DNA from: Candidatus Scybalocola faecavium
Lineage (GTDB): Bacteria; Bacillota; Clostridia; Lachnospirales; Lachnospiraceae
DNA length: 64,000 nucleotides
Direction of reading: 5' to 3'
Assembly: GCA_018713145.1 (NCBI GenBank)
Contig: DVFP01000011.1
Span: 22,606-86,605, forward strand
Shown: positions 21,697 to 62,960 of the stretch, in pieces
Layout of the letters: each line of letters begins with the position of its first letter
Position numbering within the stretch: the stretch's first letter is position 1
Program-made: the position numbers and the translations under genes
Notes under the pieces: model-generated
What the model was told of the DNA's origin: nothing
Databases searched by the model: none
Seen by the model: only the letters and a program-made list of their open reading frames with translations

Positions 21697-21712
21697 AAAA
21701 CCCCTCCTTATG

Positions 21713-22039
21713 TCATATTTCTCGCTGCAATCTCATATACATGTGTTTGTTTGCATAAAACAGATCCAGCATATCAAATATTTTTTCAGAGGATCCCACA
21801 TCTGTACCAGAGCGATACGCAACTTCCGGCTCTTCATCAAGGACTCTTGTAATATCACCGACTGTCACACCCAGCACTTTAGCGATCTTTGTCAGAAGAT
21901 CCAGCGTAATACTATTTAACCCGTTTTCAATGCGAGCATACTTCTGTCTGCTAATTCCAATCAGATCAGCAACCTGTTCCTGAGTATAGCTCTTTGCCTT
22001 CCTTAATTCCTTAATACGTCCACACAACAAAGTATTCAT
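21713..22039 (-). CDS. XRE-family HTH regulator
   Basis: RIKELRKAKSYTQEQVADLIGISRQKYARIENG. Confidence 0.92.
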   Translation of the reverse strand: MNTLLCGRIKELRKAKSYTQEQVADLIGISRQKYARIENGLNSITLDLLTKIAKVLGVTVGDITRVLDEEPEVAYRSGTDVGSSEKIFDMLDLFYANKHMYMRLQREI

Positions 22040-24265: not shown

Positions 24266-24520
24266 TATAATATGAGACAAGCGACAAAAGGTCATGCGGG
24301 CCGCGCTTGCGCAGGCAAGCGTGACTTTTTGTCGCGCAAAACACCGAAAAGGAGCCATTTTTCGCAGAAAAATGGGCGGATTTGAGGTGTTTTTAGGATT
24401 GCGGGGCGCTAAACGAACGTCCGGTGGACGTTCGTTTAGCGCCGACCGTAGCGGTAGCGAAGACCGCAAAGCGCGGAGCAATCCGTGTCTCATGCCCATT
24501 TGTCGGGCAACTCATAATAT
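24266..24520 (+). repeat. Dispersed hairpin-rich non-coding element, copy B
   Basis: TATAAT at both ends (24266, 24515); inverted repeats ATGAGACA (24272)/TGTCTCAT (24486); core shared with copy A; extra palindrome CGCTAAACGAACGTCC-GGT-GGACGTTCGTTTAGCG. Confidence 0.85.
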
Positions 24521-43991: not shown

Positions 43992-44667
43992 CCCGGTCCA
44001 CCTCCCCCTTTGCGGCTTCTAAAATGGCCTGGCGCTGAAATCGGATCAGCCATGAGCCTACCATATTCACCAGGTCCGGCCGGGTAAAATATCCCCACTG
44101 TATACGCGTCCTGTCATATTGGCAAAGCCATGGCCGCCCATGAATACTTTCTATAATAAATCTGGATTTTATCCCGCTCCCGTCCCGGCAGGAAATATGG
44201 ATCCGGGGACCGGAACTTTCGGGAAATATGTCATGATTTTCTTTAAATATCCGCTTCACATCCTGATCATTTTCGGCCCCCTGGTCCCTATGATCAATCT
44301 GGGTCTCCTCTCCGGTGCCGCAGTCCCACAACACATCCGCCAAAGCGCCTATGGCCAGTTTCAAGCTGGGAAGATACAAAAGCCGACACCGCTCATCATC
44401 CTCCCGTGTCATGGTAATCCCCATATTTCCCACATAAAATCCTGTATTCTTTATGGATCCGTCTGTTTTTTCCCCAACACACTCCACCGCATAACGGGCC
44501 TTAAGCCAGCACTCCAGAGCCATACAGGCCCCGGCGTCCACAACATAGCCATCCTCCTTATAAAGCAGGCCGCACCCAGCTAAAATTTCCTGTTTTTCCT
44601 CTAAAGACAGGCCCTCCTTCTTTACGGCCCGCAGCATTTTTTTGTCAATCACCGCGCTTACTGACAC
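43981..44667 (-). CDS. Hypothetical protein overlapping the peptidase gene (possible secretion chaperone)
   Basis: GTG 44667 after GGAGGAGG; 11-bp overlap with next gene; no recognised motif. Confidence 0.6.
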   Translation of the reverse strand: MSVSAVIDKKMLRAVKKEGLSLEEKQEILAGCGLLYKEDGYVVDAGACMALECWLKARYAVECVGEKTDGSIKNTGFYVGNMGITMTREDDERCRLLYLPSLKLAIGALADVLWDCGTGEETQIDHRDQGAENDQDVKRIFKENHDIFPESSGPRIHISCRDGSGIKSRFIIESIHGRPWLCQYDRTRIQWGYFTRPDLVNMVGSWLIRFQRQAILEAAKGEVDRDEH

Positions 44668-44696
44668 TTTTATCGCCTCCTCCAAGACTCAGCCCT

Positions 44697-46656: not shown

Positions 46657-46890
46657 TTATTCAAACCCCTTTTGTTTCATATACTCTACCACATCCCTGG
46701 CCTTTTTCAGCTGACGTATATCCTTGATAGGAATGGTAATATCAAACCGTTCTTCAAACTTTCCTACAATACACATCACATCAAAAGAATTAAGGGCCAA
46801 ATCTTCCAAAAAATCCGTGTCCATAGTAATATTATTCTTTCCAGTTACATCATATACGATTTCTTTAATTACGTCCAGCATAAAGATCAT
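46657..46890 (-). CDS. Acyl carrier protein
   Basis: 77-aa acidic protein with DLALNSFDV phosphopantetheine site and EERFDITI. Confidence 0.88.
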   Translation of the reverse strand: MIFMLDVIKEIVYDVTGKNNITMDTDFLEDLALNSFDVMCIVGKFEERFDITIPIKDIRQLKKARDVVEYMKQKGFE

Positions 46891-46939
46891 CTTCTTTCAT
46901 TTACTTTTTTCTTCTTTTGGCTCCCGCCAAAACTGCAGC

Positions 46940-48592
46940 TTACTGATTTCTCTTAATTTTATGGGCTGCTGTATGTTCAAATCCTGTCTCCTGGATATTG
47001 ACCATCTGGATGTGCTTATATAACGGCAGGCTTTTATTTATATCATCCACATAAGCCTGAAGTTTTTCAAGGATCTCGTAGCTGCTCATCCCTTCTGTCC
47101 GCTCAGGATCCGGATAAATGGCTGCGGCAATCTTTACATCATCGGCAGAATTTCCGCAGGGAGCACCATAAACAAGGACCTCCTTGACCAAAGGCATTTT
47201 CTTAAGTACCTGCTCAAGCTCCTCGGCTGCCACCTTTTTACCGTTTTTCATAACAATCAGATTTTTCTTGCGGCCGGTAATATGCAGATACCCCTTTTTG
47301 TCCATATAGCCCATGTCCTCTGTATGGAACCATCCGTCCTCATCAATCGCTTTTCTGGTCAGCTCCTCAGCGCCATAATAGCCGTTCATCAGGGAATAGC
47401 CTTTAACAAGGATCTCTCCATCGTCAAATTTAATCTGCCATCCTGGATACAAAACCCCTACAGAATCCAATGTAAAATCCCGGTTCCGATTGCAGGAAAT
47501 CGTAGGCGAGCACTCGGTGATTCCATATCCCTGCAAAACAACAATGCCAAAATGGAGGAGCTCTGAAGCCACAGCTACATCCAAATGGGCTCCGCCGCAT
47601 AAAATAACATCCAAACATTCAAACATAGTTCCCGTCAGACACGGACGAACCTCTGACAAAATCAAAGACCCTGGCTTATGGACAGCTCCCTCCAGCTTAA
47701 TCAAACGCTGGATACGAGTCTTTTTCCCGCTTTTTTCCAAAACCCCCCACAAAAGCCGGTGAATGATCTCAACAATCAAAGGTACCGCAACAATCATCTG
47801 AGGCTTAAACAAAGTCATTTCCTGGATCATTCTTTTCGTATCGCAGCTCATGCATACGCTTACGCCCTGAACTAAAGGCCCCATCATCCCCCCGGTTAAA
47901 CCATAGGTATGATATAACGGAAGTGAATTAAAAACCCGGTCTCTGGAATCCAAAAGCGTCAAAGCATCTGCCGCATTATATAAGATTGCCCTGTGGGACA
48001 GGCGCACAGGCTTAGCTGTGCTGGTCGTACCGGAAGTATACACGATAGACGCGTCCGTTTTGCCGTCCGGGCGAAAGCCTTCCAGCCAGTCTTTGGCTTT
48101 CTGTGTTTCTCCTGAATTTAAAAATTCCCTTAAAGTCTGCCCTTCACTGGTATTTTCTCCAAGAATCACCAGCTTTTGGATACGTGGATCTTCCCGGCAT
48201 GCCCGGACAGCCAGCTCCTCCATGGATGGGGATGCAAAAACCGCCTCTGTATCTGCCTGCAGGATCATTTTTACAATAATATCATCGGTATGCTCTGTAT
48301 CAATACACACTGCCGTACCGCCGCTGACAGCGATCCCAAAATATACAGACAGCCAGTCATAGGAATTTTCCCCAAGGATCGCCACATGCCTGCCTGCCAG
48401 TCCATTTTCAAACAATGCTCTGGCCACTGCAAAGGCATCTTCCTTCATCTGCTCATAGGACACCACCTTGGCGGCGCCTTTCCGGTCATAGGTGGTTACT
48501 GCAGCACGGCCTTCAAAACTCACTGCAGTATCCTGCAAAAAGTCTTTGAAATTTTCATAATAATGGCTTTCTTTTGATGAAATCGTTTTCAC
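46940..48592 (-). CDS. AMP-binding enzyme (long-chain acyl-CoA/acyl-ACP ligase type)
   Basis: YTSGTTSTAK, LPLYHTYG, QGYGITECSP, GWFHTEDMG, ITGRKKNLI, HKIKR. Confidence 0.92.
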   Translation of the reverse strand: MKTISSKESHYYENFKDFLQDTAVSFEGRAAVTTYDRKGAAKVVSYEQMKEDAFAVARALFENGLAGRHVAILGENSYDWLSVYFGIAVSGGTAVCIDTEHTDDIIVKMILQADTEAVFASPSMEELAVRACREDPRIQKLVILGENTSEGQTLREFLNSGETQKAKDWLEGFRPDGKTDASIVYTSGTTSTAKPVRLSHRAILYNAADALTLLDSRDRVFNSLPLYHTYGLTGGMMGPLVQGVSVCMSCDTKRMIQEMTLFKPQMIVAVPLIVEIIHRLLWGVLEKSGKKTRIQRLIKLEGAVHKPGSLILSEVRPCLTGTMFECLDVILCGGAHLDVAVASELLHFGIVVLQGYGITECSPTISCNRNRDFTLDSVGVLYPGWQIKFDDGEILVKGYSLMNGYYGAEELTRKAIDEDGWFHTEDMGYMDKKGYLHITGRKKNLIVMKNGKKVAAEELEQVLKKMPLVKEVLVYGAPCGNSADDVKIAAAIYPDPERTEGMSSYEILEKLQAYVDDINKSLPLYKHIQMVNIQETGFEHTAAHKIKRNQ

Positions 48593-48594
48593 TT

Positions 48595-50106
48595 TTATAC
48601 CTCCTGTATATTCGTCCCTTGTTCCGGGAAAAGATCTTTTGCATGGGAAAACAGATCCGATGAATGGATGACGCCGATAAACGCATCAACGATCATGGAA
48701 TCGAACTGAGTATTTTTTCCCTTTTTAAGTTCGGAAACCGCCTGATCCACAGAAAGGCTGTCCCTATATGTACGTTTTGATGTCATGGCATCAAAAGCAT
48801 CTGCCACACTGATGATACGGGCCATTTCCGGAATGTCATTTCCGGACAGGCCTTTGGGATAGCCATTTCCGTTATACCATTCATGATGATATTCCACCAT
48901 CGGCAGTATATCCCTAAACGATGAAAGCGAAGCCAAAAGCTGTTTTCCCCTTTCAGGATGTCTTTTAATGACACAATACTCCTCATCCGTCAATCTGGAC
49001 GGCTTTCTTAAGATTGCATCCGGAACACCGATCTTTCCAATATCATGAAATAATCCTCCGATGCGGACACGTTCCACATATTCTTCTGTCCTTCCCAGAG
49101 CCCGGGCAATATTTACGCCATAAAAGGATACCCTGTCCGAATGTCCCCGGGTATAATCGTCTTTGGCATCAACCATTTTACGAATCAGGTCAATGGTTTC
49201 CATATAGGCCTGATTCAGCTCATCATTTTGAACCTTCAAAAGCTCCTGATAAATCCGGTTTCCCATAACGGCTCCCACCTGCTTTGCATACACAGAAAAC
49301 AGCTGGAGCATTTCCTGGGGCGGTTCACCGGATGTCCGCATTAAAAGTACGCCAAAAGCTGTGCCGCTCTCCATCCGCAAAGGAGCCATGCACAGTTCCC
49401 CTTCACGCACGATCAGGGCGTCCGGATCCTTACGGACTTTTTCAAAAGCCCGGATCCCTTCCGCCTCCTGATCTTCAAAGGCGCCCCATCCGAAAAAGCG
49501 GCCCGAAAGTCCGATTTTCTTAAGCTTATCCGCTCCAAGGGCAGTAACATCCACATAAATCAATCCTTCCGGCCACTGAGTCACCTCTCTGATCTGGGCG
49601 ATGGTCCGGACTAAAAGACTTTCCATATTTGAGATACGGCTTAAAACCGGAATTTTTTCAAGGATCGACCGAAGGCCGTCCCGGTATCCCCGGATAATAC
49701 GCATCTGCCGTATGGATTTGGCACAGGATTCCACCAAAAGCTCCAACTGGTCAAACCGGTCGCTTTTTTCATAATATCCCTGAATATCCAGCTCCCGAAT
49801 GGTCTTTAAAGGCGGCGCCATGCTTTTGTGTCCGGTGAGAAGGATAATAAACAGATCTTTATTAAACTTCCTCACCTGACGTACCACCTCATCCCCGTTA
49901 ATGGGATTCATCAAAAAATCCAGGAGCAAAATATCATAATGTCCTTCCCTGATCTTTTCAATGGCTGCATAAGGGTTATTTTCCATATCCACATGGAAGC
50001 CCAATGCCTGGAAATACGACTGCAGGGTCAGGGTCATGATCTTATCGTCATCTAAAGTCAGAATTGAAAACTCTTTATCCGGACTTGAAGCTTTATTTTT
50101 CCGCAT
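48595..50106 (-). CDS. Response regulator with REC, GAF-like region and HD-GYP phosphodiesterase
   Basis: LDDD...LLLDFLM...LLTGH; TRGHSDRV, LFHDIGKIG, HHEWYNGNGYPKGL, VADAFDAMTS. Confidence 0.93.
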   Translation of the reverse strand: MRKNKASSPDKEFSILTLDDDKIMTLTLQSYFQALGFHVDMENNPYAAIEKIREGHYDILLLDFLMNPINGDEVVRQVRKFNKDLFIILLTGHKSMAPPLKTIRELDIQGYYEKSDRFDQLELLVESCAKSIRQMRIIRGYRDGLRSILEKIPVLSRISNMESLLVRTIAQIREVTQWPEGLIYVDVTALGADKLKKIGLSGRFFGWGAFEDQEAEGIRAFEKVRKDPDALIVREGELCMAPLRMESGTAFGVLLMRTSGEPPQEMLQLFSVYAKQVGAVMGNRIYQELLKVQNDELNQAYMETIDLIRKMVDAKDDYTRGHSDRVSFYGVNIARALGRTEEYVERVRIGGLFHDIGKIGVPDAILRKPSRLTDEEYCVIKRHPERGKQLLASLSSFRDILPMVEYHHEWYNGNGYPKGLSGNDIPEMARIISVADAFDAMTSKRTYRDSLSVDQAVSELKKGKNTQFDSMIVDAFIGVIHSSDLFSHAKDLFPEQGTNIQEV

Positions 50107-51985
50107 TTTCTCTTACCTCGTCTTTGGGTACAAACGTCACACAGGATAAGGGCAGGGAAATTCCAAAAATACTCCCGCCTTCCGGATTGTCTTTGTACCA
50201 CATACTTCCTCCAAATTTTGCATGAATCACAGAATTGGAAATAAAAATCCCAAGACCGGTTCCCTTTGTTCCTTTACTGGTTACCATTTGATGGAACAGC
50301 TTGGCCTGAGTATTTTTAGAAATACCGGTACCATAATCCTTCACCATCAACTGAAATTGATCCTCATCCCATTGGGTTTCAATAACAATATCATGTCTGC
50401 CTTCCGGTTTCTGGGCATCAATAGCGTTGGAAACCAGATTTCCCATAACCTGGACAAGATTGTTAATATCGCCGTGGATAAGGATGCCTTTCTCATTTAT
50501 TTTAGGATCCTCTATCAGATGACATTGGTTTTTAAGCAGCTCATGACGGAGCAAAAGCTGTACCCGCCGAACGGCATCCTCAAGGGAAAAATCCACATTT
50601 TCAGAAACAGAAATATTGGCAGCCTGCCCTTTTACGGCAGTGATAATATCTGACATATAGGCCCCTGCTTCCTTCATCCTTGAAAGCCATTCTTCCATTT
50701 CCCCGTAAATTTCCCGGTAATCATCCTCTGTAACCTCCGGATCTCCCAAGCTCTGCCTGCATTCTTCAATCAGCTGCTCCACTGCCAGAATACTTCCCGA
50801 AATACTCATGATCGGGGTTTTCAGGTTATGCGCCAACCCGCCTACCATCTGGCCAAGAAAAGCCAGACGCTCATTTTCCATCATCTTCATCTGGTTATCC
50901 GCCATTTTCTGCATGTTCAGCTTAATCTGAGTCATATCTCTGAAAATGGATACATAGCCGCCCAGCGTCCCCTTCACAAAGACCGGCGCCACTTCCACCA
51001 TAAACCAGTACCGTTTCAGCTCCTTATCCCGTTTCAGATCAAGGGGCTGCTCATAGGTGATCCTTGTATGGCGCCGTTCACAGGAATGGAGCGCGGACAT
51101 AAGATTATACAAAGGGGTTTTATTTTCTATATCTTCATTGCTGACAAAATCCGACAAACAGGTATTTTCCCGGATCTTATAGGACTTGCCGAAAATCTCC
51201 ACAAAAGGCTGATTATAATTAACCACCCGTCCGTCCTTTCCTGTTACCAGATAGCAATCACTGATCCAGTTTAGGAGCTGCTGCATAGCTACGGGACGAA
51301 TATCAAAAAAGTGGAGCCTGTAGATCACGATCCCATGAAATGCCAGCGTCAGGGCAAAGCTTACCGGGGTTAAAACAATGCTTGCATCCAGGGCATGAAA
51401 AGTTACAAAAAGATTAACGATAAGCGGGCACAGGCTTCCCACTACAAACAGCACTGCCTGCCACACATGAAGCCTGGATCTGCTTTTTATCGCAAACCGG
51501 ATGATCAGCAAAAGCGACACCGCTACACAAGCATAAGTATAAAAGCTGTGGACATAAAAATACGGTCCAAACACCACACCTGAATTGTCCAGAGCAAATC
51601 TACGGTAATATAAATGATGCACCGGATTAGAAAATACCATGATCGTGCTTATGGCAGGGATAATAAAAATACACCAGACACCTTTGGGAAGAGTATCACT
51701 ATAGGCCCTTACATAGCATATAGAAAACAACAATGAACATGCCGGTATAAATGCGCCGCACATAGTGGTGGATGCGTCCAGCAGCTGCAGGATCGTCATC
51801 TTATCCGGAGGGATAAAGCCCATGATAAAGATCACCAGAAGCCAAAAAAGCAGCAGCGCTGTTGCTGTATAATAACATTTGTGCATCATCATGATCTGCT
51901 GACCTCTGCGCAAAGTAATAATAAATGCCACAGTGACCGCCATGGCCGCCACCAGGATGATCATATAAGGGGTTGAAATTTCCAC
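50093..51985 (-). CDS. Membrane histidine kinase with N-terminal 7TM region and PAS-like domain
   Basis: About 7 TM segments incl. SNPVHHLYY (HisKA_7TM-like), VVNYNQPF PAS, LAHNLKTP, NLVSNAIDA, DYGTG, GTGLG; GTG 51985 after AGGAGG (track start 52024). Confidence 0.9.
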   Translation of the reverse strand: MEISTPYMIILVAAMAVTVAFIITLRRGQQIMMMHKCYYTATALLLFWLLVIFIMGFIPPDKMTILQLLDASTTMCGAFIPACSLLFSICYVRAYSDTLPKGVWCIFIIPAISTIMVFSNPVHHLYYRRFALDNSGVVFGPYFYVHSFYTYACVAVSLLLIIRFAIKSRSRLHVWQAVLFVVGSLCPLIVNLFVTFHALDASIVLTPVSFALTLAFHGIVIYRLHFFDIRPVAMQQLLNWISDCYLVTGKDGRVVNYNQPFVEIFGKSYKIRENTCLSDFVSNEDIENKTPLYNLMSALHSCERRHTRITYEQPLDLKRDKELKRYWFMVEVAPVFVKGTLGGYVSIFRDMTQIKLNMQKMADNQMKMMENERLAFLGQMVGGLAHNLKTPIMSISGSILAVEQLIEECRQSLGDPEVTEDDYREIYGEMEEWLSRMKEAGAYMSDIITAVKGQAANISVSENVDFSLEDAVRRVQLLLRHELLKNQCHLIEDPKINEKGILIHGDINNLVQVMGNLVSNAIDAQKPEGRHDIVIETQWDEDQFQLMVKDYGTGISKNTQAKLFHQMVTSKGTKGTGLGIFISNSVIHAKFGGSMWYKDNPEGGSIFGISLPLSCVTFVPKDEVRENAEK

Positions 51986-52110
51986 CGCATTTCCTCCTGT
52001 TAAAAATTTAATCCTGCCCGGCATCAGCCCTCTTTATGGCCGCCTGTGAAACAGACAGCCTTAAAGAGCACGGATCCGTTATCTATCCTTTCGCCGGACT
52101 TTTTCCTATT

Positions 52111-55100
52111 TTACGGCACAAATGCCGCCAGAATCCGCTCCACATCCGGCATCTCCCATGTAAATCCCAGACGGGACAAAGCTTCCTCTGTCCTACGGCA
52201 TACCGGGGAAATACGCATGGGCACCTGAGTAAACCGGTCATACTGGGTCAGCAGCATGGAGATCGACAGATCATTTGTATTTCCGGCCAGCTGACGCAAA
52301 TGCGCCTCAAAAACATCCCGGCTTACAAGCTTAAGCTCAAGTCCCATACCGGCCGCTATCTCAGACACGGTTTTCATTTTAGGATTAAAAACATGATAGA
52401 CCATGCGCTCTCCCTTTTCCATCAGGGTCACTGCCGCAGCGGCACAGTCATCTACCGCTGTTGTATCCAAAGGAAGATGCGCTAAAATATCCGGGATCAT
52501 CCCCGCCTTAAGGATTCCTGACACAAGTCCCCAAAAAGCATTACTTTCTGGATTCTTCTGAAATACGCCGTCACTGCTGCGTCCTACCAGGCGTCCGATC
52601 CGCAAAATCTTTACATCCATCCCATCCTCCGCAGCTTTCCGGACAAGAGTTTCACCCTGAAATTTCCCTTTCAGGTAAATATTGTCCTCCCAGTTTTGTC
52701 CAATATTAAAATCATCCTCTGAAAATTCCCGGACAAGCTCCGGCTGGTTCCGGACAAATTCACTGCCGAGACTCACTGTGGAAATATAGACCATTTTCCC
52801 GCCGGCCGCCTCAGCCAGCTCTAAAACATGGCGTGTCCCCTCCCGGTTTGTCATCACCGGTTCATCTGAATCCGCATAGTGACGCACATCTGCTGCGGCA
52901 TGGATCACCACTCCCACGTTTTCCGTCACCGTGGACCATTGTTCCGGAGACAGACCTAATCTCGGACACACAATATCTCCTTGAAGAACCTCGATCCTTT
53001 TTTTAGCCCGGGCCAAAAAACCTCTGCCAAAATACCACTCCATAGTATCCTCAAACCGCCGGGGATCAGAACCCCGGACAAGGCAGTAAATCTTTTTATA
53101 GCCGCGCTGGATCAGCTCCTGCAGCACGTGAGCCCCGAAAAATCCCGTAGCCCCGGTCAGAAATACACACCGGGGATCTTTAACCGCTTTGACAGGCGCC
53201 GGGCTCATCTCCGTGCCGGCCTTATCCTTAAAGAAAAAAGCTTTTTGCTGATTTAACGTAGGGTTCCCATAAAACTGGGACAAAGTCATGGACAAACCAT
53301 GATTATAATAACGGCTTAACAGGTTCAGGGCTGTCAAAGACGTACCGCCCTGCTCGAAAAAGGACTGATCCCCTTGAATTTCATCCAGTTTCAATGCATC
53401 CTTCCAAAAACCCTCTAAAGTCCGGCCATCTACAGCCTGGGGATCCGGGTTCTTACGATCTGCCTCCTCTAAAGGCAAATGTACCGGTTTCGCCGGCACC
53501 GGAGCCGGTATGGAAGTCTCCCGGATCTTTTCAAGGGCTTTAAGATCTGTCTTGCCCGTATCAGTTACCGGAAGATGATCCAATACTTGGATGGATGAAG
53601 GCACCATGTACCCGGGAAGCTCAGATTCCAGCCATTGCCGCAGCGCGCCTGTATCCACCGTTTCACCGGGCTTAGGGGTCACAAATGCCCTCAGGGCCTT
53701 AAAATCTCCCTCAGACACAGCCACCACCGCCGCTTGTCCGATCAGTCCGGAGCTTATGATCTTCCCCTGGATCTCCGCCAGCTCTACCCGCTGGCCGTTT
53801 AATTTAATCTGATGATCCCCACGGCCTGCAAAGTCAATACGCCCGTCAGGCAAAAGGCGTACCAGATCACCGCTGCGGTATATGATTTCCCCCGGCCGGA
53901 AAGGATCTTTAACAAACAGCTCCTTTGTCAGATCCGGCCGGCCTACATATCCGGCAGACACACAGGCGCCGCCAAAATACAGTTCTCCTATCCCTGTCGG
54001 CATGACGCGTTTCATATGCTCATCCAGCACATAGATCCAACAGTTGGGAAAAATCTGTCCCACTGTGATCTTATCCGTATGGGTCACATCATCCATTGTA
54101 CAGTAAACAGTAACTTCCGTCGGTCCGTACAAATTATAGATCGTATGGCATCCTGCCGCCCGAAGCTTGTCAAGAAGGGCCGGAGGAAATACTTCCCCGC
54201 ACATCAGCACTGTGTCTATATGAGACAAAGCCTTGACAAAATCCGGATTTTCCATAAAAAGTACAGCTCTTGACGGGGTAAATTCCACGATCCCAACGTG
54301 ATGTTCCCGGATCAGGCGGGCACATTTCCACGGCAGGACCATTTCATCCTCATCCGCCATAACAATATAATTGCCCATAGCTAAAGTCAGCAAAGTTTCT
54401 GTAATAAAAATATCAAAAATAACATTGGCCGTACACAAAAAGCCTGTGTGGCCTCCAGGCAGCTTACCTTTCATAACCGCGTACAAATTGGCAATGGAAT
54501 GATGACGGATCATAACGCCTTTAGGCTGGCCGGTAGAGCCGGAAGTAAACAAAATAAAGCATACATCCTCTCCGCTTCTGCCTGCAGCCGGTTCCGGCTG
54601 CCGAAAATCGCCTTCCTCCACAGCTTTTTCAATGTCCACAAAGGCGCCATCCATTCCCTCCGGCAGTTCTTCAAGGGTTTTCCTGTCACACAAGGTCACT
54701 TTCACCCCGGACTGATCCATCATGGATTCCAGCCGTTTTTTGGGAAATGTAGGCAGCATAGGCACATAAGCGCATCCGATTTTTAAAACAGCCATCATAG
54801 CCGTCAAAAGCCGGGGACCTCTCCGGCACAAAATTCCTATGTGATCTCCCTGCTTTAACCCCATATCCTGGAGACGGGAAGCCAATGCATCCCAATCTGC
54901 TTTAAGCTCGCCCAGAGTAAACGTTTCATCTCTAAAGATCAATGCCGCCTGATCCGGAGCCAGCTCTGCTGCCATATCCACCATTGCATCCACCGGCACA
55001 TCCGCAAACGCGGCGCTGAGATTTTCAGTAAGGCTGTCAAGCCTGAATCTGTCCGCTCCGGATATTTTTGGAATATTCCCTAATGTGCGTTTTTCATCTC

Positions 55101-58100
55101 TGGCAAGTCCTGCTGCAATAGCGCCTATACACCGGGCATAAAACTCCCCGGTCTGAGGAAGGAACAAGGTGTCAGCATACTCCAGCCTGAAATTCCATCT
55201 GCCTTTTTCTTTGTAAACTTCCAGGTTAAGATCCATCTTAGCACTGCTTGAAGGCAGCTCTTCGCTTTGGACTTCCATATGGTCAAACGTTGTGCCTTCA
55301 AGATTTACCGGACGCATAGATAAAATGGCATGATACATGTCATTTCCTTTTCTGCCTGCCATTTTCGCCAGCGACTCTAAATCCGCCCTGTTGTGATCCA
55401 GTATCCCGGTGACGGTTTTCTTAATCTGCTCCATATATTCCAGACAGGTAAGCTCTGCCCCGGCCCGGATCCTTATCGGAAGAGTATTGACAAACATTCC
55501 GGCCATATCCTTCAGTTCACGGCTGCCGCGGACAGATACCGGCGTCCCTGCGCACACATCGTCCTGACGGCTGACAGAAGCTAAAAGGATGCCAAAAGCG
55601 GCCGTAAACAGCATAAAAGGCGTAAAGCCGTGATCCTGACAGAACCGGTCGCAAAGCCGGCTGTCTGCTTCTGTCATTTTATAAAAAACGGTACGTCCCT
55701 GATAATCAAACGTCTGACTTCTCGGAAAATCTGTTGGTATCCGTACAGGCTCAGGCATGTCCTTAAGCAGATCCCGCCAAAAATCCTGGTCTTCACGGGA
55801 AAGCTGCGCGTTTAGCCGGGACAAAGTCCAGGCATAATCTATATAAGAAAGATGGCCGGCCTCCCGGGCCTTTCCTTCATAAAAATCATTGAGCCGGGAA
55901 ATGAGCATGGCTGCACTTTCCCCGTCACTAATGATATGATGCATATCGATAAAAATTATTGACTCCTGCCCCTCCGTCCACAGGCCCACCCGCATTAAAG
56001 GGGGACGGGTCAGATCAAAGGGTCTGACAAAAGCTTTCTTTGCCTCATCTAAAGGCAAATGACTGAAATCTTCCACGTAAGCTTCCACCCTGGCCCACAG
56101 TTTTTGCCCGATACCATTCTCTCCAGGCTCAAACCCCATGCGAAGCACCGGCTCGCTTTGCACCAAAGCAAAAAAAGCCTGTTCCAGTTTTTCTTGCCGG
56201 ATTTCTCCCCGGACTTTAAAGGCACAGGGCATATTATAGCTGCAGCTGTCCGGGTGCATCATGGTTTCAAAATAAACGCCCATCTGCTGAGGGGTCAGGG
56301 GATAAAGATCCCTTTTCGGCGCTTTCATCAGGCCAAGGACTCCCTCATTATTGCCGGAAACCGACCACGCTTTCGGTGATTCGCCAAGATGCCGTGCCAA
56401 TCCTGCAGCATTGCGGCAGGAATAAAGATCACTGATGCGCAGCCGCCTGCCTAAAATATTTTCCAGCTCTGTCAGCACCTGGAGCCCGTTGAGCGAATCC
56501 CCGCCATAAAGGAAATAGTCCCCGGACACAGGCATATCCGGCCGATTTAATACCTTTCGGAATACCTCCAGTATCTTTCCGGCAAGACTTGACGGATCTG
56601 CCTCCTGTTCCTGCGCATAAAGCTCCGGCAGAGGAAGGCGCGAGGCGTCCAGCTTTCCATTGGCATTTAAAGGGATGGATGGGACATGGATATAAGCCCC
56701 AGGGATCATGTAATCCGGCAGGACACTGGAAGCAAAAGCCATAAGCTCCTGCTCCGGCACAGGCTTATCGGCTGTATAATACGCCACAGGTACTTTTGAC
56801 AGGCCTTCTCCTGCCAGGCGCACTGCGGCCAGCTGTATTTTCGGATAGGTCATAAGCTTTGCACTGATCTCTCCAAGCTCTACCCGCTGTCCCCGAAGTT
56901 TAACCTGGCTGTCCTCCCGGCCGCGGATCACGATTTCTCCGTTTTGTGTCCAGCAGCCAATATCCCCGGTGCAATACATCCGCTCTCCCGGTTCAAAGGG
57001 ACTGTCCGTAAACGCCGCTTTAGTCTTTTCCGGATCATGATAATACCCTTCTCCCACACACAGGCCGGCCACATATAATTCTCCGTACACGCCTATAGGC
57101 ATAGGATTTTTATATTTATCCAGAATATAGCAGCGGCAGTTATCCATCGGACTTCCTACTGTAATCCGGGCGGTTCGGTTTAACAACCCGATGGCAACAC
57201 CTACCGTCGTCTCAGAAGGTCCGTACTGATTGTAAACCCTGGCTCCTGTATAAGATGCCAGCTGCGCCAAAAGGCTTCCCGGAAAATTCTCACCGCCGCA
57301 CACAATAGACTCAATACGGCTTAACGCTTTGCAAAAGCTTTCGTCCTTCATGTAAGCCTGAAGTCTTGAAGGGGTTGTTGTTAAAAATCCTACGGCATAA
57401 TCCCGGATCAGCCCGGCCAGAGCCCTGGGATCCTCCACATCATCGCTTCCGGCCAAAACCACCGTCCGACCGTTGAGAAGAGCCCCGATACTTTCGATCA
57501 AAAAGGCATCAAAGCCTGTATTACATATGGATAAAACAGCCCCGGAAGCATAGCAGGGACTCATGGCCATGGCAAAATTTAAAAAAGACTCCTGACGGAT
57601 CATCACGCCTTTGGGCCTGCCGGTACTCCCGGAAGTATAGATCAGATAGGCCAAAGCATTTTTATCCCGGCAGATGACAGCATGGCTTTCCTTTTTCCGG
57701 GAAACCTCGCTGGCATTTAAAAGCTCTGCCATATTAATACATGGGGTATCTTTCTTAAACCGGTCCAACATCTGAGTCCATGCCGGACTGGTGAGGATCA
57801 CCCCAGGCGTACAATCCTGATAGATTTCCGCCATCCGTCCCGGGGGACAGTTTTCCGGCAGGATCACCCAGGGCATCCCGGCAAATGCGCATCCGGCCAT
57901 AGCCGCAATGAGCAGGACAGACCTGGGCATTGCCAGAAGGACAACACTTTCCCGGCCCGGGCAATAATGCCGGATAGCATCTGCCACTGTACAGCCATAA
58001 TCCCACAAGGTTTTATAGGTAAAGCGCCGTCCTTTTTCAATCACAGCAACTCTTTCCGGAACACTAAAACAAACCTCTTCCATCTTTTGTCCCAGACTTA

Positions 58101-59517
58101 ACGGTGGAAGATACCGCTCCGTGCGGTTAAACCCAAACAGTACCTTTTCCTTCTCCTCCGCCCCTAAAAAAGACAGGTGGGCAATCGGCTTTTTCGGCTG
58201 GGCAAAGGCTTCATTGAGGATATTCATTAAATACATATGGAAATGCTCAATTTCCTGCTGTGAAAAAAGCTGGGCCAGATAATCATAATTCACAGAATAT
58301 CGCTTTTCATCCTCAATATTATTTAAGTGGATGCATATGTGCTCTGCCTGATAACCGGAATAGTGCCACTGTCCGGAAAATTCCACGGATGTATTATGAT
58401 TTTTATAGGCCTGACTGTTATGAAAGGACAAAACCAGATGGTACAAACGATGGACGGACGGGTTTTCACTTTTGCATATAGCAAAAATTTCCCCATAAGA
58501 CAGCTTTTGGTGGCGAAGCAGTTCCAGCCAGTCCTCTTCCAGATGACCGGCAAATTCCTCAAAGCTCCACGATTCATCAATACTGGAAAAAAATGGCAGT
58601 GTACTGACAAACATTCCCGTTGTTTTTCGGTCCGTGTAAGAACTTCGGTTATGGACCGGAGCTCCCATGCAAAAGCTCCTGATTCCCCGGGTGCGTTTTA
58701 AATAAATAGCCACTGCCATGTAAAACACCGCAAAAGGCGCGATCCGATGGGATGTACAAAATGCGTTCAGCTCATGATTCATGATCTCTGTCAGATAAAA
58801 GGTACGGCGGTAGCCTACCGGACTTACATCCGCTCCCTGTTCCTCCTTTAAGGAAACCGGAGGCGTCACATCCTTTAAAATCCTTTTCCAATAGTCCACA
58901 TCCCGATCATGGATCTTTGAATGAAGATACTTTTCCTCATCCTCCACATGAAGGCGGTAACTGGGAGACGGCTCGATCTGTGGAGTTTTTCCCTCCAAAA
59001 GCTCCAAATAAGCTACGGCGATCTTGTTGATCAAAGCCACCAGGGACCAGCCGTCTGAGATTAAATGATGGGTCTTTATAAGCACCTCACCCTCATGTTC
59101 TCCGATCTTTACAATAACAAACTGAAATAGGGGACTGTCTGTTAATGGCATGACCTCTCTGGCCACACTTTTCTCCCAGTGAAGGATTCCTTCCTGATTT
59201 GTAGCGGAAAAATCCAACACCGGAAACTGTATCCGCTGCCAGGGCACCTCATACTGCCAGGGTTCCCCCTGGGCATCTGTTATGATCCGTGTCCTTAAGG
59301 CGGGATCTGACTCTGCCACAAGATTAAGACATTCCTGAAGGCAAGCAACATTAAAAGTCCCCCGGATATGAAATGTCTCACATATATTATTCATCGGCGT
59401 TCCCTTATAGGCCTTCTCCAGATTCCATATATTTTTCTGACTGGCAGACAAAGGGAATCCCTCTTCCTCCCGTATAAGCTCCTTGTGCACTTTCTCTACC
59501 TTCCTTATCCAATGCAT
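52111..59517 (-). CDS. Two-module NRPS C-A-T-C-A-T-R with terminal thioester reductase
   Basis: HHLISDG (~59060), YTSGSTGRPKG (~57630), GGDSL (~56500), HHIISDG (~55930), FTSGSTGQPKG (~54540), GGTSL (~53345), LTGATGFFG (~53145), YLKGK. Confidence 0.96.
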   Translation of the reverse strand: MHWIRKVEKVHKELIREEEGFPLSASQKNIWNLEKAYKGTPMNNICETFHIRGTFNVACLQECLNLVAESDPALRTRIITDAQGEPWQYEVPWQRIQFPVLDFSATNQEGILHWEKSVAREVMPLTDSPLFQFVIVKIGEHEGEVLIKTHHLISDGWSLVALINKIAVAYLELLEGKTPQIEPSPSYRLHVEDEEKYLHSKIHDRDVDYWKRILKDVTPPVSLKEEQGADVSPVGYRRTFYLTEIMNHELNAFCTSHRIAPFAVFYMAVAIYLKRTRGIRSFCMGAPVHNRSSYTDRKTTGMFVSTLPFFSSIDESWSFEEFAGHLEEDWLELLRHQKLSYGEIFAICKSENPSVHRLYHLVLSFHNSQAYKNHNTSVEFSGQWHYSGYQAEHICIHLNNIEDEKRYSVNYDYLAQLFSQQEIEHFHMYLMNILNEAFAQPKKPIAHLSFLGAEEKEKVLFGFNRTERYLPPLSLGQKMEEVCFSVPERVAVIEKGRRFTYKTLWDYGCTVADAIRHYCPGRESVVLLAMPRSVLLIAAMAGCAFAGMPWVILPENCPPGRMAEIYQDCTPGVILTSPAWTQMLDRFKKDTPCINMAELLNASEVSRKKESHAVICRDKNALAYLIYTSGSTGRPKGVMIRQESFLNFAMAMSPCYASGAVLSICNTGFDAFLIESIGALLNGRTVVLAGSDDVEDPRALAGLIRDYAVGFLTTTPSRLQAYMKDESFCKALSRIESIVCGGENFPGSLLAQLASYTGARVYNQYGPSETTVGVAIGLLNRTARITVGSPMDNCRCYILDKYKNPMPIGVYGELYVAGLCVGEGYYHDPEKTKAAFTDSPFEPGERMYCTGDIGCWTQNGEIVIRGREDSQVKLRGQRVELGEISAKLMTYPKIQLAAVRLAGEGLSKVPVAYYTADKPVPEQELMAFASSVLPDYMIPGAYIHVPSIPLNANGKLDASRLPLPELYAQEQEADPSSLAGKILEVFRKVLNRPDMPVSGDYFLYGGDSLNGLQVLTELENILGRRLRISDLYSCRNAAGLARHLGESPKAWSVSGNNEGVLGLMKAPKRDLYPLTPQQMGVYFETMMHPDSCSYNMPCAFKVRGEIRQEKLEQAFFALVQSEPVLRMGFEPGENGIGQKLWARVEAYVEDFSHLPLDEAKKAFVRPFDLTRPPLMRVGLWTEGQESIIFIDMHHIISDGESAAMLISRLNDFYEGKAREAGHLSYIDYAWTLSRLNAQLSREDQDFWRDLLKDMPEPVRIPTDFPRSQTFDYQGRTVFYKMTEADSRLCDRFCQDHGFTPFMLFTAAFGILLASVSRQDDVCAGTPVSVRGSRELKDMAGMFVNTLPIRIRAGAELTCLEYMEQIKKTVTGILDHNRADLESLAKMAGRKGNDMYHAILSMRPVNLEGTTFDHMEVQSEELPSSSAKMDLNLEVYKEKGRWNFRLEYADTLFLPQTGEFYARCIGAIAAGLARDEKRTLGNIPKISGADRFRLDSLTENLSAAFADVPVDAMVDMAAELAPDQAALIFRDETFTLGELKADWDALASRLQDMGLKQGDHIGILCRRGPRLLTAMMAVLKIGCAYVPMLPTFPKKRLESMMDQSGVKVTLCDRKTLEELPEGMDGAFVDIEKAVEEGDFRQPEPAAGRSGEDVCFILFTSGSTGQPKGVMIRHHSIANLYAVMKGKLPGGHTGFLCTANVIFDIFITETLLTLAMGNYIVMADEDEMVLPWKCARLIREHHVGIVEFTPSRAVLFMENPDFVKALSHIDTVLMCGEVFPPALLDKLRAAGCHTIYNLYGPTEVTVYCTMDDVTHTDKITVGQIFPNCWIYVLDEHMKRVMPTGIGELYFGGACVSAGYVGRPDLTKELFVKDPFRPGEIIYRSGDLVRLLPDGRIDFAGRGDHQIKLNGQRVELAEIQGKIISSGLIGQAAVVAVSEGDFKALRAFVTPKPGETVDTGALRQWLESELPGYMVPSSIQVLDHLPVTDTGKTDLKALEKIRETSIPAPVPAKPVHLPLEEADRKNPDPQAVDGRTLEGFWKDALKLDEIQGDQSFFEQGGTSLTALNLLSRYYNHGLSMTLSQFYGNPTLNQQKAFFFKDKAGTEMSPAPVKAVKDPRCVFLTGATGFFGAHVLQELIQRGYKKIYCLVRGSDPRRFEDTMEWYFGRGFLARAKKRIEVLQGDIVCPRLGLSPEQWSTVTENVGVVIHAAADVRHYADSDEPVMTNREGTRHVLELAEAAGGKMVYISTVSLGSEFVRNQPELVREFSEDDFNIGQNWEDNIYLKGKFQGETLVRKAAEDGMDVKILRIGRLVGRSSDGVFQKNPESNAFWGLVSGILKAGMIPDILAHLPLDTTAVDDCAAAAVTLMEKGERMVYHVFNPKMKTVSEIAAGMGLELKLVSRDVFEAHLRQLAGNTNDLSISMLLTQYDRFTQVPMRISPVCRRTEEALSRLGFTWEMPDVERILAAFVP

Positions 59518-59579
59518 TTGCGTTTACACCGTTTGGACAAATATCCCCAAAATATTCTTCCCACGCGCCGCATACCCCT

Positions 59580-59700
59580 ATTATATGCTGTGAAAAATAC
59601 AAATGCAATCAATTCTTTCGCTATATATGATATTTTATTTCAATTTTTGTGACGATTTATGTGACTATTTTTTGATGCATTGTGACTATCTATGTGACGT
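59580..59700 (-). promoter_or_regulatory. NRPS operon promoter with upstream paired direct repeats
   Basis: TTGCAT-17-TATAAT (59608-59580); TGTGAC at 59648, 59660, 59681, 59693. Confidence 0.7.
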
Positions 59701-59788
59701 ATTTTAACCTTATGCAATACGGGACGATTATGGCGCATTTTCGTATCAAAGACAAAAAATACTCCCATCAAGTAAAAAAATTTTCTTC

Positions 59789-60102
59789 TTGACAAACACA
59801 AACAGATGTATTACACTTTAACAAGATAAATAATTAAATCAAAACCGATGAGAAAGAGAAGTAAGCTTTCAAACAAGATCCCAGAGAGCTGCCGGCGGTG
59901 GAAAGGCAGTATCACGTTAAAAGCTGAATGGACTTTTGAGGGCAGTCCGAAATGTAAAAAGTAGGCGCTGCCGGGAACCAAACCCGTTATCAATAAGGTG
60001 TGTATGTTTGTACATAAAAAAGTGGGCGAAAGTCAAGTTGAGTGGCACCGCGGAATGAATTTACCGTCTCAAGCATAAGTTTATGCTTGGGGCTTTTTTA
60101 TT
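59789..60102 (+). promoter_or_regulatory. Sigma-A promoter and Trp T-box riboswitch (UGG specifier)
   Basis: TTGACA-17-TACACT; AGAGAG/GGTGGAA loops; GAATGGAC specifier (59929-59931); TTGAGTGGCACCGCG; terminator CTCAAGCATAA...TTATGCTTGGG-CTTTTTT. Confidence 0.92.
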
Positions 60103-60215
60103 TGCTTCTGTTCACAAGGTGGACAGTAACACAGCCGTCCCGTAAAAAGCGTTAAAACGCTTCCATCCACTCCCGTCCGTCTCCTGCCGGTTTTGTATCT
60201 TTAGGAGGTTTTATT

Positions 60216-61307
60216 ATGAATAAGAAAATGATCGCAGCTTTATTAACCCTTTCCTTAAGCGCATGTGCCCTGACCGGATGCCAGTCCGCTTCCGGCAATG
60301 TCCAGGATTCAGGATCCGCCTCCGGCAGTGCCCAGGATTCAGAGTCCGCCTCCGGCAGCGCCCAGGCCTCAGAATCCGCCTCCGGCAGCGGGGAAAGCTA
60401 CACCATCTGCATTTCCCAATATGCTCAGCACGGCTCCCTGGACAACTGCCGGGAAGGCTTCTTAGAGGGCCTGGCACAGGAAGGGATCGTGGAAGGAGAA
60501 AACCTGACCGTTCAGTATCAAAATGCTCAGGCCGATTCTGGTATGTGCAGCCAGATCGCCTCCCAGTTTGTAGCTGATGACCCGGATCTGATCTGCGCCA
60601 TTGCTACGCCCAGCGCTTTAAGCTGCTATAACGCGGCCAGAGATACAGACATTCCTGTGATCTACACCGCAGTTACAGACCCGGAAACTGCAGAACTTGT
60701 AGACGAAAATCAAATGCCTGTGGGAAATATTACCGGAACCAGCGATAAACTTCCGGTAGATGCCCAATTAGATCTGATCCGTTCCATCCTTCCGGACGCA
60801 AAAACCATTGGCATTATGTATACCACCAGTGAACTGAACTCTGTCGCTACTATTGAAGAATATAAGGAAAAGGCTCCGGACTATGGATTTGAGATCGTAG
60901 ACATGGGCATTTCCACCAGCGCGGACATTCCTTTAGCCGCAGATAACCTTCTGTCCAAAGTAGACTGTCTCAACAACCTGACAGACAACACTGTGGTTCA
61001 GGGACTTCCCACCATCCTGGCAAAGGCTGCGGATCAAAACATCCCTGTCTTTGGCAGCGAGATCGAGCAGGTAAAGATCGGCTGCCTGGCCGCCGCCGGC
61101 ATCGACTACATTGAGCTTGGAAAAAAGACCGGACAAATGGCTGCCCGGATTTTAAAAGGCGAAGCATCTGCCAGTGAAATGCCTTATGAAACCTTTGAAG
61201 ATTACAGCACCTATTTTAACCAGGCTGTAGCTGATAATCTCGGTCTTTCCATAGACAGCGGCATCCTGGAAAATGCGGAAATCTTTACTGAAATCACAGA
61301 GGAGTGA
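60216..61307 (+). CDS. ABC transporter substrate-binding lipoprotein, TrpX-like (tryptophan)
   Basis: Lipobox LTGC, QYAQHGSLD, IATPSA, YTAVTDP, NITGTSD; under Trp T-box. Confidence 0.9.
   Translation: MNKKMIAALLTLSLSACALTGCQSASGNVQDSGSASGSAQDSESASGSAQASESASGSGESYTICISQYAQHGSLDNCREGFLEGLAQEGIVEGENLTVQYQNAQADSGMCSQIASQFVADDPDLICAIATPSALSCYNAARDTDIPVIYTAVTDPETAELVDENQMPVGNITGTSDKLPVDAQLDLIRSILPDAKTIGIMYTTSELNSVATIEEYKEKAPDYGFEIVDMGISTSADIPLAADNLLSKVDCLNNLTDNTVVQGLPTILAKAADQNIPVFGSEIEQVKIGCLAAAGIDYIELGKKTGQMAARILKGEASASEMPYETFEDYSTYFNQAVADNLGLSIDSGILENAEIFTEITEE
60285..60390 (+). repeat. Coding 30-nt tandem repeat (SASGSAQDSE), about 3.5 units, lipoprotein linker
   Basis: TCCGCCTCCGGCAGTGCCCAGGATTCAGAG-type units. 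Confidence 0.9.
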
Positions 61308-61312
61308 AAAAC

Positions 61313-62194
61313 ATGTCCATTGTTTTAGGTATTTTAGAACAGGGCCTGATCTACGGGATCATGGCCCTTGGGGTATATATTACTTATAAAATCCTTGACT
61401 TTCCGGATCTTACCGTAGACGGCAGCTTCCCCCTGGGAGCTGCTGTGGCGGCTGTGCTTATAAAAAACGGCGTTAATCCTTATCTTTCTCTGGCAGCCGC
61501 CTTTGCAGCCGGCGTCCTTGCCGGCATCTGTACGGGACTGATCCATGTAAAACTTAAGGTTCGGGATCTTTTAGCCGGGATTATTATGATGACTGCCCTG
61601 TATACCATTAACCTGAAGATCGCCGGTCAGGCCAATATCCCTTTATTTACCAGTCAGACGATTTTTGACAATGACCTTTTAAACGCCATTGTTCCCCAAG
61701 CCCTTAAGCCCTACATAACTCTGATCATTATTTTAATCATCAGTCTCATTGCTAAATATGTGCTGGATCTTTATTTAAAGACCCGGTCCGGCTATCTGCT
61801 CCGGGCAGTCGGCGACAATGATACCCTTGTCACCTGCCTGGCTAAGGATAAAGGTCTTGTTAAAATCGTAGGACTGGCCATTTCCAACGGCCTGGTGGCC
61901 TTAGGGGGCGCGGTCTTTGCCCATGAGGAAGGATACTTTGATATTTCCAGCGGCACAGGCACCATGGTCATCGGACTGGCCAGCGTGATCATCGGCACCA
62001 ACCTGTTTAAAAATGTGACCATTCTTCGGGTCACATCCTCTGTGCTGATCGGCTCTGTATTATATAAAGCCTGTGTAGCTATTGCCTTAAACTTCCTGGA
62101 ACCGGATTTTGTCAAACTGATAACTGCAGTGCTTTTACTGGTGATCCTTGTGATCAGTCATGACCGTAAAAAGAAGGTGAAGATCAATGCTTGA
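61313..62194 (+). CDS. ABC transporter permease, TrpY-like
   Basis: ILDFPDLTVDGSFPLG, LRAVGDN, GTGTMVIGLASVIIG. Confidence 0.92.
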   Translation: MSIVLGILEQGLIYGIMALGVYITYKILDFPDLTVDGSFPLGAAVAAVLIKNGVNPYLSLAAAFAAGVLAGICTGLIHVKLKVRDLLAGIIMMTALYTINLKIAGQANIPLFTSQTIFDNDLLNAIVPQALKPYITLIIILIISLIAKYVLDLYLKTRSGYLLRAVGDNDTLVTCLAKDKGLVKIVGLAISNGLVALGGAVFAHEEGYFDISSGTGTMVIGLASVIIGTNLFKNVTILRVTSSVLIGSVLYKACVAIALNFLEPDFVKLITAVLLLVILVISHDRKKKVKINA

Positions 62195-62960
62195 ATTAAA
62201 AAATATCCATAAATATTATAATCCCGGCACAGTCAATGAAATGTGTTTATTTTCTGATTTCAGCCTGACGGTCAATGACGGAGACTTTATCTCCATTATC
62301 GGCAGCAACGGGTCAGGAAAAACTTCCCTTTTAAATATTATCTGCGGCAGTATTCCTATTGAAAGCGGGACCATCACCATTCACGGCAGGGATATTACCA
62401 AAGCCAAAGACTTTAAACGCTATGCCAGGATCGGCCGGGTATTTCAAAATCCTGCCATGGGTACCTGCCCATCCATGACCATCCTTGAAAACATGTCCCT
62501 GGCAGATAATAAAGGGAATTCCTTTAATCTTCGTCCGGGCACCAACAAAAAAAGGATCCAGGCCTACCGGGAAATGCTGGCCCAGCTTGGCCTGGGACTG
62601 GAAAATAAACTGGATACTAAGGTAGGCTCTCTTTCCGGCGGCCAGCGTCAGGCCATGGCCCTGCTCATGTCCACCATGACCCCCATTGAGTTTCTCATTC
62701 TGGATGAACACACCGCAGCTTTAGACCCAAAAACAGCAGACCTGATCATGGAGCTTACGGATAAAATCGTTAAAGAAAAACATCTTACTACCATGATGGT
62801 CACCCATAACCTGCGCTATGCGGTAGAATATGGAAACCGGCTTCTTATGATGCACCAGGGTTCCTATATTTTAGATAAATCCGGGCCGGATAAGGATGCC
62901 CTTACTGTAGACAGTCTCCTCACTGAATTTAACCAGATCAGTATTGAGTGCGGCAACTGA
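62187..62960 (+). CDS. ABC transporter ATPase, TrpZ-like
   Basis: GSNGSGKT, LSGGQRQA, LDEHTAALDP. Confidence 0.94.
   Translation: MLELKNIHKYYNPGTVNEMCLFSDFSLTVNDGDFISIIGSNGSGKTSLLNIICGSIPIESGTITIHGRDITKAKDFKRYARIGRVFQNPAMGTCPSMTILENMSLADNKGNSFNLRPGTNKKRIQAYREMLAQLGLGLENKLDTKVGSLSGGQRQAMALLMSTMTPIEFLILDEHTAALDPKTADLIMELTDKIVKEKHLTTMMVTHNLRYAVEYGNRLLMMHQGSYILDKSGPDKDALTVDSLLTEFNQISIECGN

Follow-up and report, generated by a model that had tools for sequence, protein, structure and literature searches.

Clusters in which a signal synthase, its sensor and a second-messenger enzyme are encoded side by side include the rpf/DSF (diffusible signal factor) system of Xanthomonas (RpfB, RpfF, RpfC and RpfG), where a synthase, a fatty acyl ligase, a membrane kinase and a REC-HD-GYP regulator are clustered and the output is the breakdown of cyclic di-GMP (c-di-GMP) (PMC8042644). 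Gut Clostridia harbour nonribosomal peptide synthetases (NRPSs) with the domain order C-A-T-C-A-T-R (C, condensation; A, adenylation; T, thiolation; R, reductase), which give rise to N-acyl dipeptide aldehydes (Guo et al. 2017; ruminopeptin, Schneider and Balskus 2018; PMC12327764, PMC8518294, PMC10794557), and related dipeptide aldehydes were reported as protease inhibitors (PMC8518294, PMC10794557). Further, an NRPS of Clostridium saccharoperbutylacetonicum produces a dipeptidyl alcohol that is N-acylated and may be tied to the physiology of the producer (Li et al. 2020; PMC11063209), and the Pseudomonas virulence factor (Pvf) is a signal derived from an NRPS cluster, its receptor and pathway being stated as unknown (PMC10194917). 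Here we describe a five-gene cassette in a 64,000-nt stretch of the genome of Candidatus Scybalocola faecavium (the window, to whose positions all coordinates refer unless a locus is named), in which an NRPS gene is followed by genes for a seven-transmembrane (7TM) histidine kinase, a REC-HD-GYP response regulator, an AMP-binding ligase and an acyl carrier protein (ACP). The cassette is real and tightly conserved, combines synthase, sensor and second-messenger enzyme, and most likely works like Rpf/DSF without being a member of that system. We regard it as probable (roughly 60%) that it constitutes a self-signal circuit of the Rpf/DSF kind, with an NRPS as synthase.

The source genome (G000; L and G labels denote loci and genomes of this analysis, and f labels families) has 3.0 Mb, is 81% complete and contains a single copy of the cassette, with a phosphopantetheinyl transferase (PPTase) gene on another contig. 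A previous reading of the window from its sequence only had claimed five same-strand genes in the order given in Table 1, a 14-bp overlap between kinase and regulator genes and a gap of 2 bp between regulator and ligase genes. Open reading frame (ORF) calls, Pfam and our own profiles agree with all of this. The description of the regulator as REC-HD-GYP was right concerning these two domains and concerning the lack of a DNA-binding domain (Pfam: REC-DUF3369-HD), but omitted the middle domain DUF3369, which is missing from the regulators of some orthologous loci. From their spacing, the five genes probably form one operon, and no terminator-like site was found at the junctions between them. Ribosome-binding sites suggest that the NRPS probably starts at GTG 59490 and the kinase at GTG 51985, the latter resulting in a protein of 630 aa. 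The NRPS motifs are intact by reading (two HHxxxDG, two carrier serines, the Rossmann and YxxxK motifs of the reductase), and the protein fits the C-A-T-C-A-T-R scheme with active starter C domain and reductase motifs (ruminopeptin-type architecture); its score against TIGR01746 is 187.6 bits, under the family cut-off of 213.35. The His, N and G boxes of the kinase can be read as intact, and the receiver Asp, HD, HHExxxGxGYP and RxY(K/R) motifs of the regulator are all intact. For the ligase, no solved structure was matched at E 1e-35. The nearest named relative by kinase is Candidatus Scybalocola faecigallinarum (L020, 85%).

The sequence-only reading had named as refuting its proposal the case that homologous NRPSs lie only rarely beside such a kinase/HD-GYP pair. 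This did not refute it: in the family, the orthologous NRPSs always have the pair as neighbours. A full-length kinase orthologue was found in six of 60 relatives, and in all six the order NRPS-kinase-regulator-ligase was conserved; the ACP gene was seen in five of them, and the sixth contig stops inside the ligase gene. L020 and L021 duplicate loci already included and were omitted from all counts. In family-wide searches, in which two or three candidates were scored per genome, the kinase was detected at E 1e-35 or better in 9 of 400 genomes. NRPS matches at E 1e-120 were present in 24 of the 400; nine of these have more than 1,760 bits, and the best of the others has 759 bits. Identical sets of nine genomes hold the kinase and the NRPS orthologues, which are adjacent in every case, with all five genes present and with cassette flanks that vary between genera. 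An insensitive pattern scan of contigs gave three loci. Eisenbergiella porci (L022) is in culture and has the complete cassette, and the kinase of L114, an Eisenbergiella tayi protein, belongs to this cassette as well. In G231, a gene for a BTAD-domain regulator is located immediately 3' of the ACP gene (L023:14528-15730).

The family has 19 further NRPS places, and we inspected 11 of them as well (13.6-19.5 kb each). Seven of these NRPSs end in a reductase, and the neighbours in the 11 loci include MATE(-HATPase), SpoIIE, STAS or LytTR genes. Reductase-ending gut NRPSs beside MATE-HATPase fusions are found in L032 (5409-16174), L031, L036, L037 and L039; in L032 they are joined by genes for SpoIIE-HATPase and STAS proteins. 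This arrangement may be another signalling layout, one that works by partner switching.

Among metagenome sequences, 80 loci were kept out of 545 matches, 61 of which were assigned to the close clade by our kinase-core profile and 19 were more distant. Counting only loci with enough DNA, with near-duplicates included and the counts therefore not independent, the close clade has an NRPS directly upstream of the kinase in 41/42, an HD domain downstream in 48/48, ligase and ACP in 37/37 and a PPTase in 29/35 loci, and the distant loci have an NRPS in 15/15, an HD domain in 14/16, a ligase in 2/14 and an ACP in 0/14. In this clade ligase and ACP are constant members, in other loci they are accessory, and they lie outside the conserved core; the proposed synteny of all five genes holds for this clade and is reduced to three genes in wider relatives. 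The pairing with a PPTase suggests that ligase and ACP provide the starter C domain with acyl groups. In L116 (667-3672), and similarly in L144, the start of a DUF6320 gene, an NRPS C domain and a kinase without most of its 7TM domain are fused in frame, which looks like a joint deletion of synthase and sensor or a misassembly.

At the level of the class, this kinase type was present in 45 of 398 other genomes (two further genomes of the sample were unscored). Directly upstream of the 45 kinases we found an NRPS in 30 cases (three seen as C-terminal fragments only, at contig ends), a gene for a PilZ-GNAT protein in three, an alpha/beta hydrolase in two, no such gene in nine and a contig end in one. 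A REC-HD-GYP gene is adjacent to 27 kinases; 26 of these have a visible upstream gene, and it encodes a synthase in 26/26 (23 NRPS, 3 PilZ-GNAT), whereas none of the 11 kinases without an upstream NRPS or GNAT gene has an adjacent HD-GYP gene. The linkage of synthase, kinase and regulator is not due to chance, and the class-wide core consists of these three, with several NRPS types or the PilZ-GNAT protein in the synthase slot. Three kinds of terminal domain occur in the NRPSs of the class: reductase, thioesterase, and one lacking a Pfam match, which presumably resembles an acyl-ACP reductase. One-module NRPSs with a Pfam-less end of 380 aa, possibly an unusual release domain, are encoded in L051 (4625-8938), L049 (5392-9714) and L089, and in some one-module cassettes a different, HAMP-linked membrane domain is in place. 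Two further layouts were observed: in L079 (9687-10664) and L088 (8736-9695) an alpha/beta hydrolase gene lies 5' of the same kinase type and a REC-HTH_3 regulator replaces HD-GYP, and in L078 (7581-15506) an NRPS is followed by two tandem 7TM kinases with no adjacent regulator.

Table 1. Features of the cassette and its upstream region (window positions).
Feature	Position	Strand	Basis
NRPS, two modules C-A-T-C-A-T-R, 2468 aa	52111..59517	-	Pfam and own profiles
Sensor histidine kinase HisKA_7TM-PAS-HisKA-HATPase, 643 aa	50093..52024	-	Pfam and own profiles
7TM sensor domain (kinase residues 23-244), predicted seven-helix bundle, GPCR-like fold (GPCR, G-protein-coupled receptor)	51293..51958	-	Pfam, model
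Response regulator REC-DUF3369-HD-GYP, 503 aa, without DNA-binding domain	48595..50106	-	Pfam
AMP-binding enzyme, long-chain fatty-acid ligase-like, 550 aa	46940..48592	-	Pfam
Stand-alone ACP (PP-binding), 77 aa	46657..46890	-	Pfam
Non-coding stretch 5' of the NRPS, weak sigma-70-like sites, four GTCACA copies	59518..59838	-	Sequence scan

In agr and comQXPA systems, the synthase co-varies with the kinase's sensor half, and the core of the kinase and the regulator are constant. We compared domain identities between loci. In f59, one chromosomal slot is occupied by either an NRPS or a PilZ-GNAT gene. L050 (NRPS) and L053 (PilZ-GNAT), which belong to the same genus, share 38% identity in the 7TM and 25% in the PAS domain, but 96% in the kinase core, 95% in REC and 97% in HD, whereas same-synthase NRPS pairs of this genus have 7TM identities of 83-90% at core identities of 76-92%. 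The NRPSs of L041 and L044, again from one genus, differ in A codes and release domains (C 78%, A 56%), and their kinases share 44% in 7TM, 88% in PAS and 95% in the core. L041 and L048 stem from different families and have a common A code and a thioesterase; here the 7TM identity is 60% at a core identity of 66%, compared to 37-40% at 74-83% between L048 and its own genus. Five close pairs of f66 with changed A codes show 51-58% in 7TM at 77-86% in the core. Overall, close relatives with changed synthase have 7TM identities of 37-58% and core identities of 73-96%, and in the wider relatives the 7TM identity never exceeds 58% in pairs with clearly changed synthase. In the five-gene clade, a single pair whose A2 code has changed shows 66%. 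Thus, of the expected co-phylogeny of A and 7TM domains, a joint change of synthase and sensor was seen in the wider relatives and none was detected in the five-gene clade. In this clade the A1 codes are nearly constant and the A2 codes look like small-residue variants, which suggests that the product may vary little. The HD domain correlates with the A2 code there (r 0.31-0.45), which is most readily explained by common descent, given that the trees of HD, A2 and 7TM largely agree.

The 7TM domain was modelled with AlphaFold from 90 sequences (pLDDT, predicted local distance difference test, 92). The model consists of seven helices in a bundle with GPCR topology, and when it was compared with 48,161 chains, all 50 matches listed were GPCRs or GPCR-like designs (Z 15.4-17.5, root mean square deviation (rmsd) about 3.1-4.2, 203-223 aligned residues, identity 5-14%); the best fold matches have Z about 17, rmsd 3.2-3.3 and about 215 aligned residues, and helical bundles reach Z 13-14 by chance. 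Foldseek gave weak agreement (best E 8e-4), and the 7TM profile had no sequence match in the PDB. A pocket for small molecules within the membrane is plausible. HisKA_7TM is a named sensor domain, for which no ligand is given in the available part of PMC5847659.

Concerning the product, the pocket code of A1, DAITVGQVG(K), could not be assigned to a substrate, and that of A2, DITELCLVY(K), is glycine-like. Among solved structures, A2 has its best single-domain match in linear gramicidin synthetase A, module 2, which has a similar pocket and which loads glycine. The predicted product is an N-acyl-X-glycinal or, if reduced further, an N-acyl-X-ethanolamide (glycinol). Peptidyl glycinals can inhibit papain-type proteases, so a host-directed role is possible, and both roles can coexist. 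Eisenbergiella strains are said to be among the sources of the Guo 2017 work, and the product of one cassette member may already be known. Away from the cassette, G000 encodes a ligase-T-C fusion protein of 1201 aa (G000:C28:62145-65750), a possible fatty-acid-amide synthase.

The proposed coupling to c-di-GMP was strengthened by the recurrence of c-di-GMP parts in the cassette, namely GGDEF (diguanylate cyclase) genes immediately upstream in three loci and the PilZ-GNAT variant. G000 has eight GGDEF matches, five of them with intact motif, and two EAL matches; GGDEF matches were present in 15/15 genomes of one set and 5/5 of another set of cassette- or kinase-bearing genomes probed, although in some small genomes they were of partial length only. 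In G231 (93% complete) the sole GGDEF match is located 15 bp upstream of the NRPS, and EAL was not found in this genome. A related GGDEF gene lies at the same place in L158 and an unrelated MASE6-GGDEF gene in L115, the two cases of a cassette-linked GGDEF gene among the 27 close metagenome loci that extend far enough upstream. A c-di-GMP-I riboswitch was detected in two of five genomes, away from the cassette. The PilZ-GNAT protein (543 aa; L053:3854-5485, also in L054 and L056) replaces the NRPS in the same slot, and in the 15 homologues found the RxxxR motif is invariant. Its model contains a pair of PilZ domains resembling YcgR (E 2e-11 with Foldseek; Z 12.5, rmsd 3.4, 209 aligned) and a tandem GNAT part (Z 12.6, rmsd 4.9, 271 aligned), and LuxI and FeeM folds are absent among the matches listed. 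We regard the protein as a candidate c-di-GMP-gated signal synthase. Taken together, the GGDEF and PilZ context favours c-di-GMP as the messenger.

In the circuit that we propose, ligase and ACP would provide the NRPS with a fatty acyl chain, and the NRPS would release the N-acyl-X-glycinal or glycinol. This product would likely bind to the predicted GPCR-like domain of the kinase, the kinase would likely phosphorylate the neighbouring regulator, and the HD-GYP domain of the latter, predicted to break down cyclic dinucleotides, would then alter the amount of such a messenger, which is most likely c-di-GMP. In loci with the PilZ-GNAT protein in place of the NRPS, c-di-GMP would act back on the making of the signal. 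An exporter is not encoded in the cassette, in agreement with what is expected of a lipophilic diffusible molecule.

Several results weigh against such a circuit. The GPCR-like fold predicted for the 7TM domain alone reveals neither a ligand nor homology. In the five-gene clade, the 7TM identities of 22 close pairs sharing the A2 code (49-98%) overlap, at their lower end of 49-59%, the range of pairs with changed code; partial Mantel tests with 36 cassettes, in which the other domains were controlled, gave no correlation of 7TM with the A1 or A2 codes (r 0.015, p 0.42; r -0.04, p 0.72); and for L096 and L137 the 7TM tree, made by a quick method, agrees with the HD and not with the A2 tree. The changed-synthase pairs represent few independent events, about five or six, and because the 3' end of the synthase gene and the sensor part are contiguous DNA, hitch-hiking could account for the exchange of both. 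In one family, six genomes keep NRPS and kinase although no regulator gene is adjacent. As to the messenger, the best PDB match of the HD-GYP domain is the 3'3'-cGAMP phosphodiesterase 5z7c (E 4e-40), ahead of 4mcw; with our queries no PilZ domain was found in any of five genomes searched, and no c-di-GMP-I riboswitch was found in G000 at its 81% completeness. Finally, neither this kinase nor the HD-GYP gene occurs within the 13.6-19.5 kb inspected at each of the 11 other NRPS loci of the family, including the seven that end in a reductase. This suggests that the circuit marks one clade and not all gut peptide-aldehyde NRPSs, and the proposed signal role cannot be extended to the other reductase-ending loci.

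In another explanation the order of events is reversed: the kinase senses an outside cue (from diet, host or a neighbour), the HD-GYP output controls the cluster and the product is an effector, e.g. a protease-inhibiting aldehyde. Protease inhibition was reported for related products (PMC8518294, PMC10794557), the PilZ-GNAT variant puts a synthase downstream of c-di-GMP, PAS and DUF3369 offer other inputs, and co-variation of sensor and code was not detected in the five-gene clade. We nevertheless consider this explanation unlikely, since it predicts neither the replacement of the 7TM domain together with the synthase, while core and regulator stay 95% identical, nor a sensor that follows the product across families. 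Moreover, no DNA-binding output or riboswitch linking c-di-GMP to the NRPS promoter was found, and the thioesterase and GNAT variants would yield no aldehyde.

Alternatively, the kinase could read the acylated product retained in the membrane of the same cell, as a gauge of acyl-chain or amino-acid supply and not as a cell-to-cell signal. A cassette exporter is present in none of the loci listed, a dedicated ligase and ACP would couple the output to free fatty acids, reactive aldehydes generally travel poorly, and attempts at isolation failed (PMC12327764). However, close relatives differ through rapid exchange of both product and sensor, which suits strain-specific social signals of the agr type better than a gauge of conserved metabolism, and such a gauge therefore appears to us improbable, a little more so than an outside cue. 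That the genes are mere neighbours, inherited and recombined as a single block, would be in line with the broadly congruent domain trees within the clade and with partial correlations that are not sensor-specific. Yet the two-way linkage survives changes of flanks, of synthase type and of sensor type, and the reading frames often overlap, so that the absence of any functional link is largely excluded and, in our view, very improbable. We thus prefer the self-signal circuit.

The GTCACA copies upstream of the NRPS start at 59698, 59686, 59665 and 59653 (spacing 12, 21 and 12). Two of them are kept in L011, and the repeats were seen in the nearest relative only; they are a possible operator. No conserved DNA motif was found among 63 upstream regions, and no Rfam c-di-GMP riboswitch upstream of the NRPS. 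At 59839-62960, a T-box leader is followed by a TrpX-type ABC transporter in divergent orientation to the cassette. It was rejected as an exporter of the product, being divergent, behind a T-box leader and not kept beyond the genus, and the downstream genes rluA and ytvI (AI-2E family) were rejected as parts of the cassette, since they are not conserved. Elsewhere in the window, two ORFs downstream of ytvI (43029-44685; 320 and 234 aa) have no Pfam or NCBIfam match, two Clostridiales-1 RNAs are located at 1253-1415 and 24273-24492, and a region of low GC content (20261-22039) contains an HTH_3 gene, an IrrE/M78 peptidase gene and an ORF of 206 aa without clear Pfam match, the start of which is PIN-like as judged by eye.

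It is tempting to speculate that Clostridia run class-wide acyl-amide quorum signals, in which interchangeable synthases are matched to GPCR-fold kinase sensors with a c-di-GMP readout, that HisKA_7TM domains are lipid-amide receptors, and that many gut 'protease-inhibitor' clusters are signal synthases first. We hold this view tentatively, at slightly less than even odds. If true, these signals would be the Gram-positive counterpart of acyl-homoserine lactone (AHL) and DSF signalling, with synthases that are one- or two-module NRPSs with three release chemistries or c-di-GMP-gated PilZ-GNAT proteins. A well-known class of gut NRPS metabolites, so far discussed for its effect on the host, would gain a role for the bacteria themselves, a receptor candidate and an output that can be measured, and a first candidate ligand class is offered for the HisKA_7TM domain. 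Last but not least, natural matched and mismatched synthase-sensor pairs are available for a direct test. In the literature searched, we found no NRPS-kinase-HD-GYP unit in Clostridia, although figures or supplements of Guo 2017, Li 2020 and Schneider 2018 may show the genes, and no description of a GPCR fold for HisKA_7TM, as judged mostly from listings.

Compared to known systems, the cassette shares with the gut dipeptide-aldehyde NRPSs, discussed as host protease inhibitors, the C-A-T-C-A-T-R order with starter C domain and terminal reductase, and differs from them in the link of this clade with kinase and HD-GYP genes. The C. saccharoperbutylacetonicum product is of the same chemical class, and a receptor or second messenger is not mentioned in the available portion of PMC11063209. 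With Rpf/DSF, the cassette has in common the REC-HD-GYP gene beside a kinase gene and the linked fatty acyl ligase. However, its synthase is an NRPS, RpfF being of the crotonase family, and no crotonase-family match was found. RpfC is a hybrid kinase with receiver and HPt domains, whereas the kinase described here consists of 7TM, PAS, HisKA and HATPase only, without receiver over its 643 aa, and its host is Gram-positive. Since the ligase is accompanied by an ACP and often a PPTase, supply is a likelier role for it than turnover. PvfC is also an NRPS, but here a candidate receptor and an output are encoded beside the synthase. Finally, the joint change of synthase and sensor around a constant core, seen in the wider relatives and not detected in the five-gene clade, resembles agr and comQXPA, with the difference that those systems use ribosomal peptides and DNA-binding regulators, while here the signal would be made by an NRPS and read out by a regulator without DNA-binding domain.

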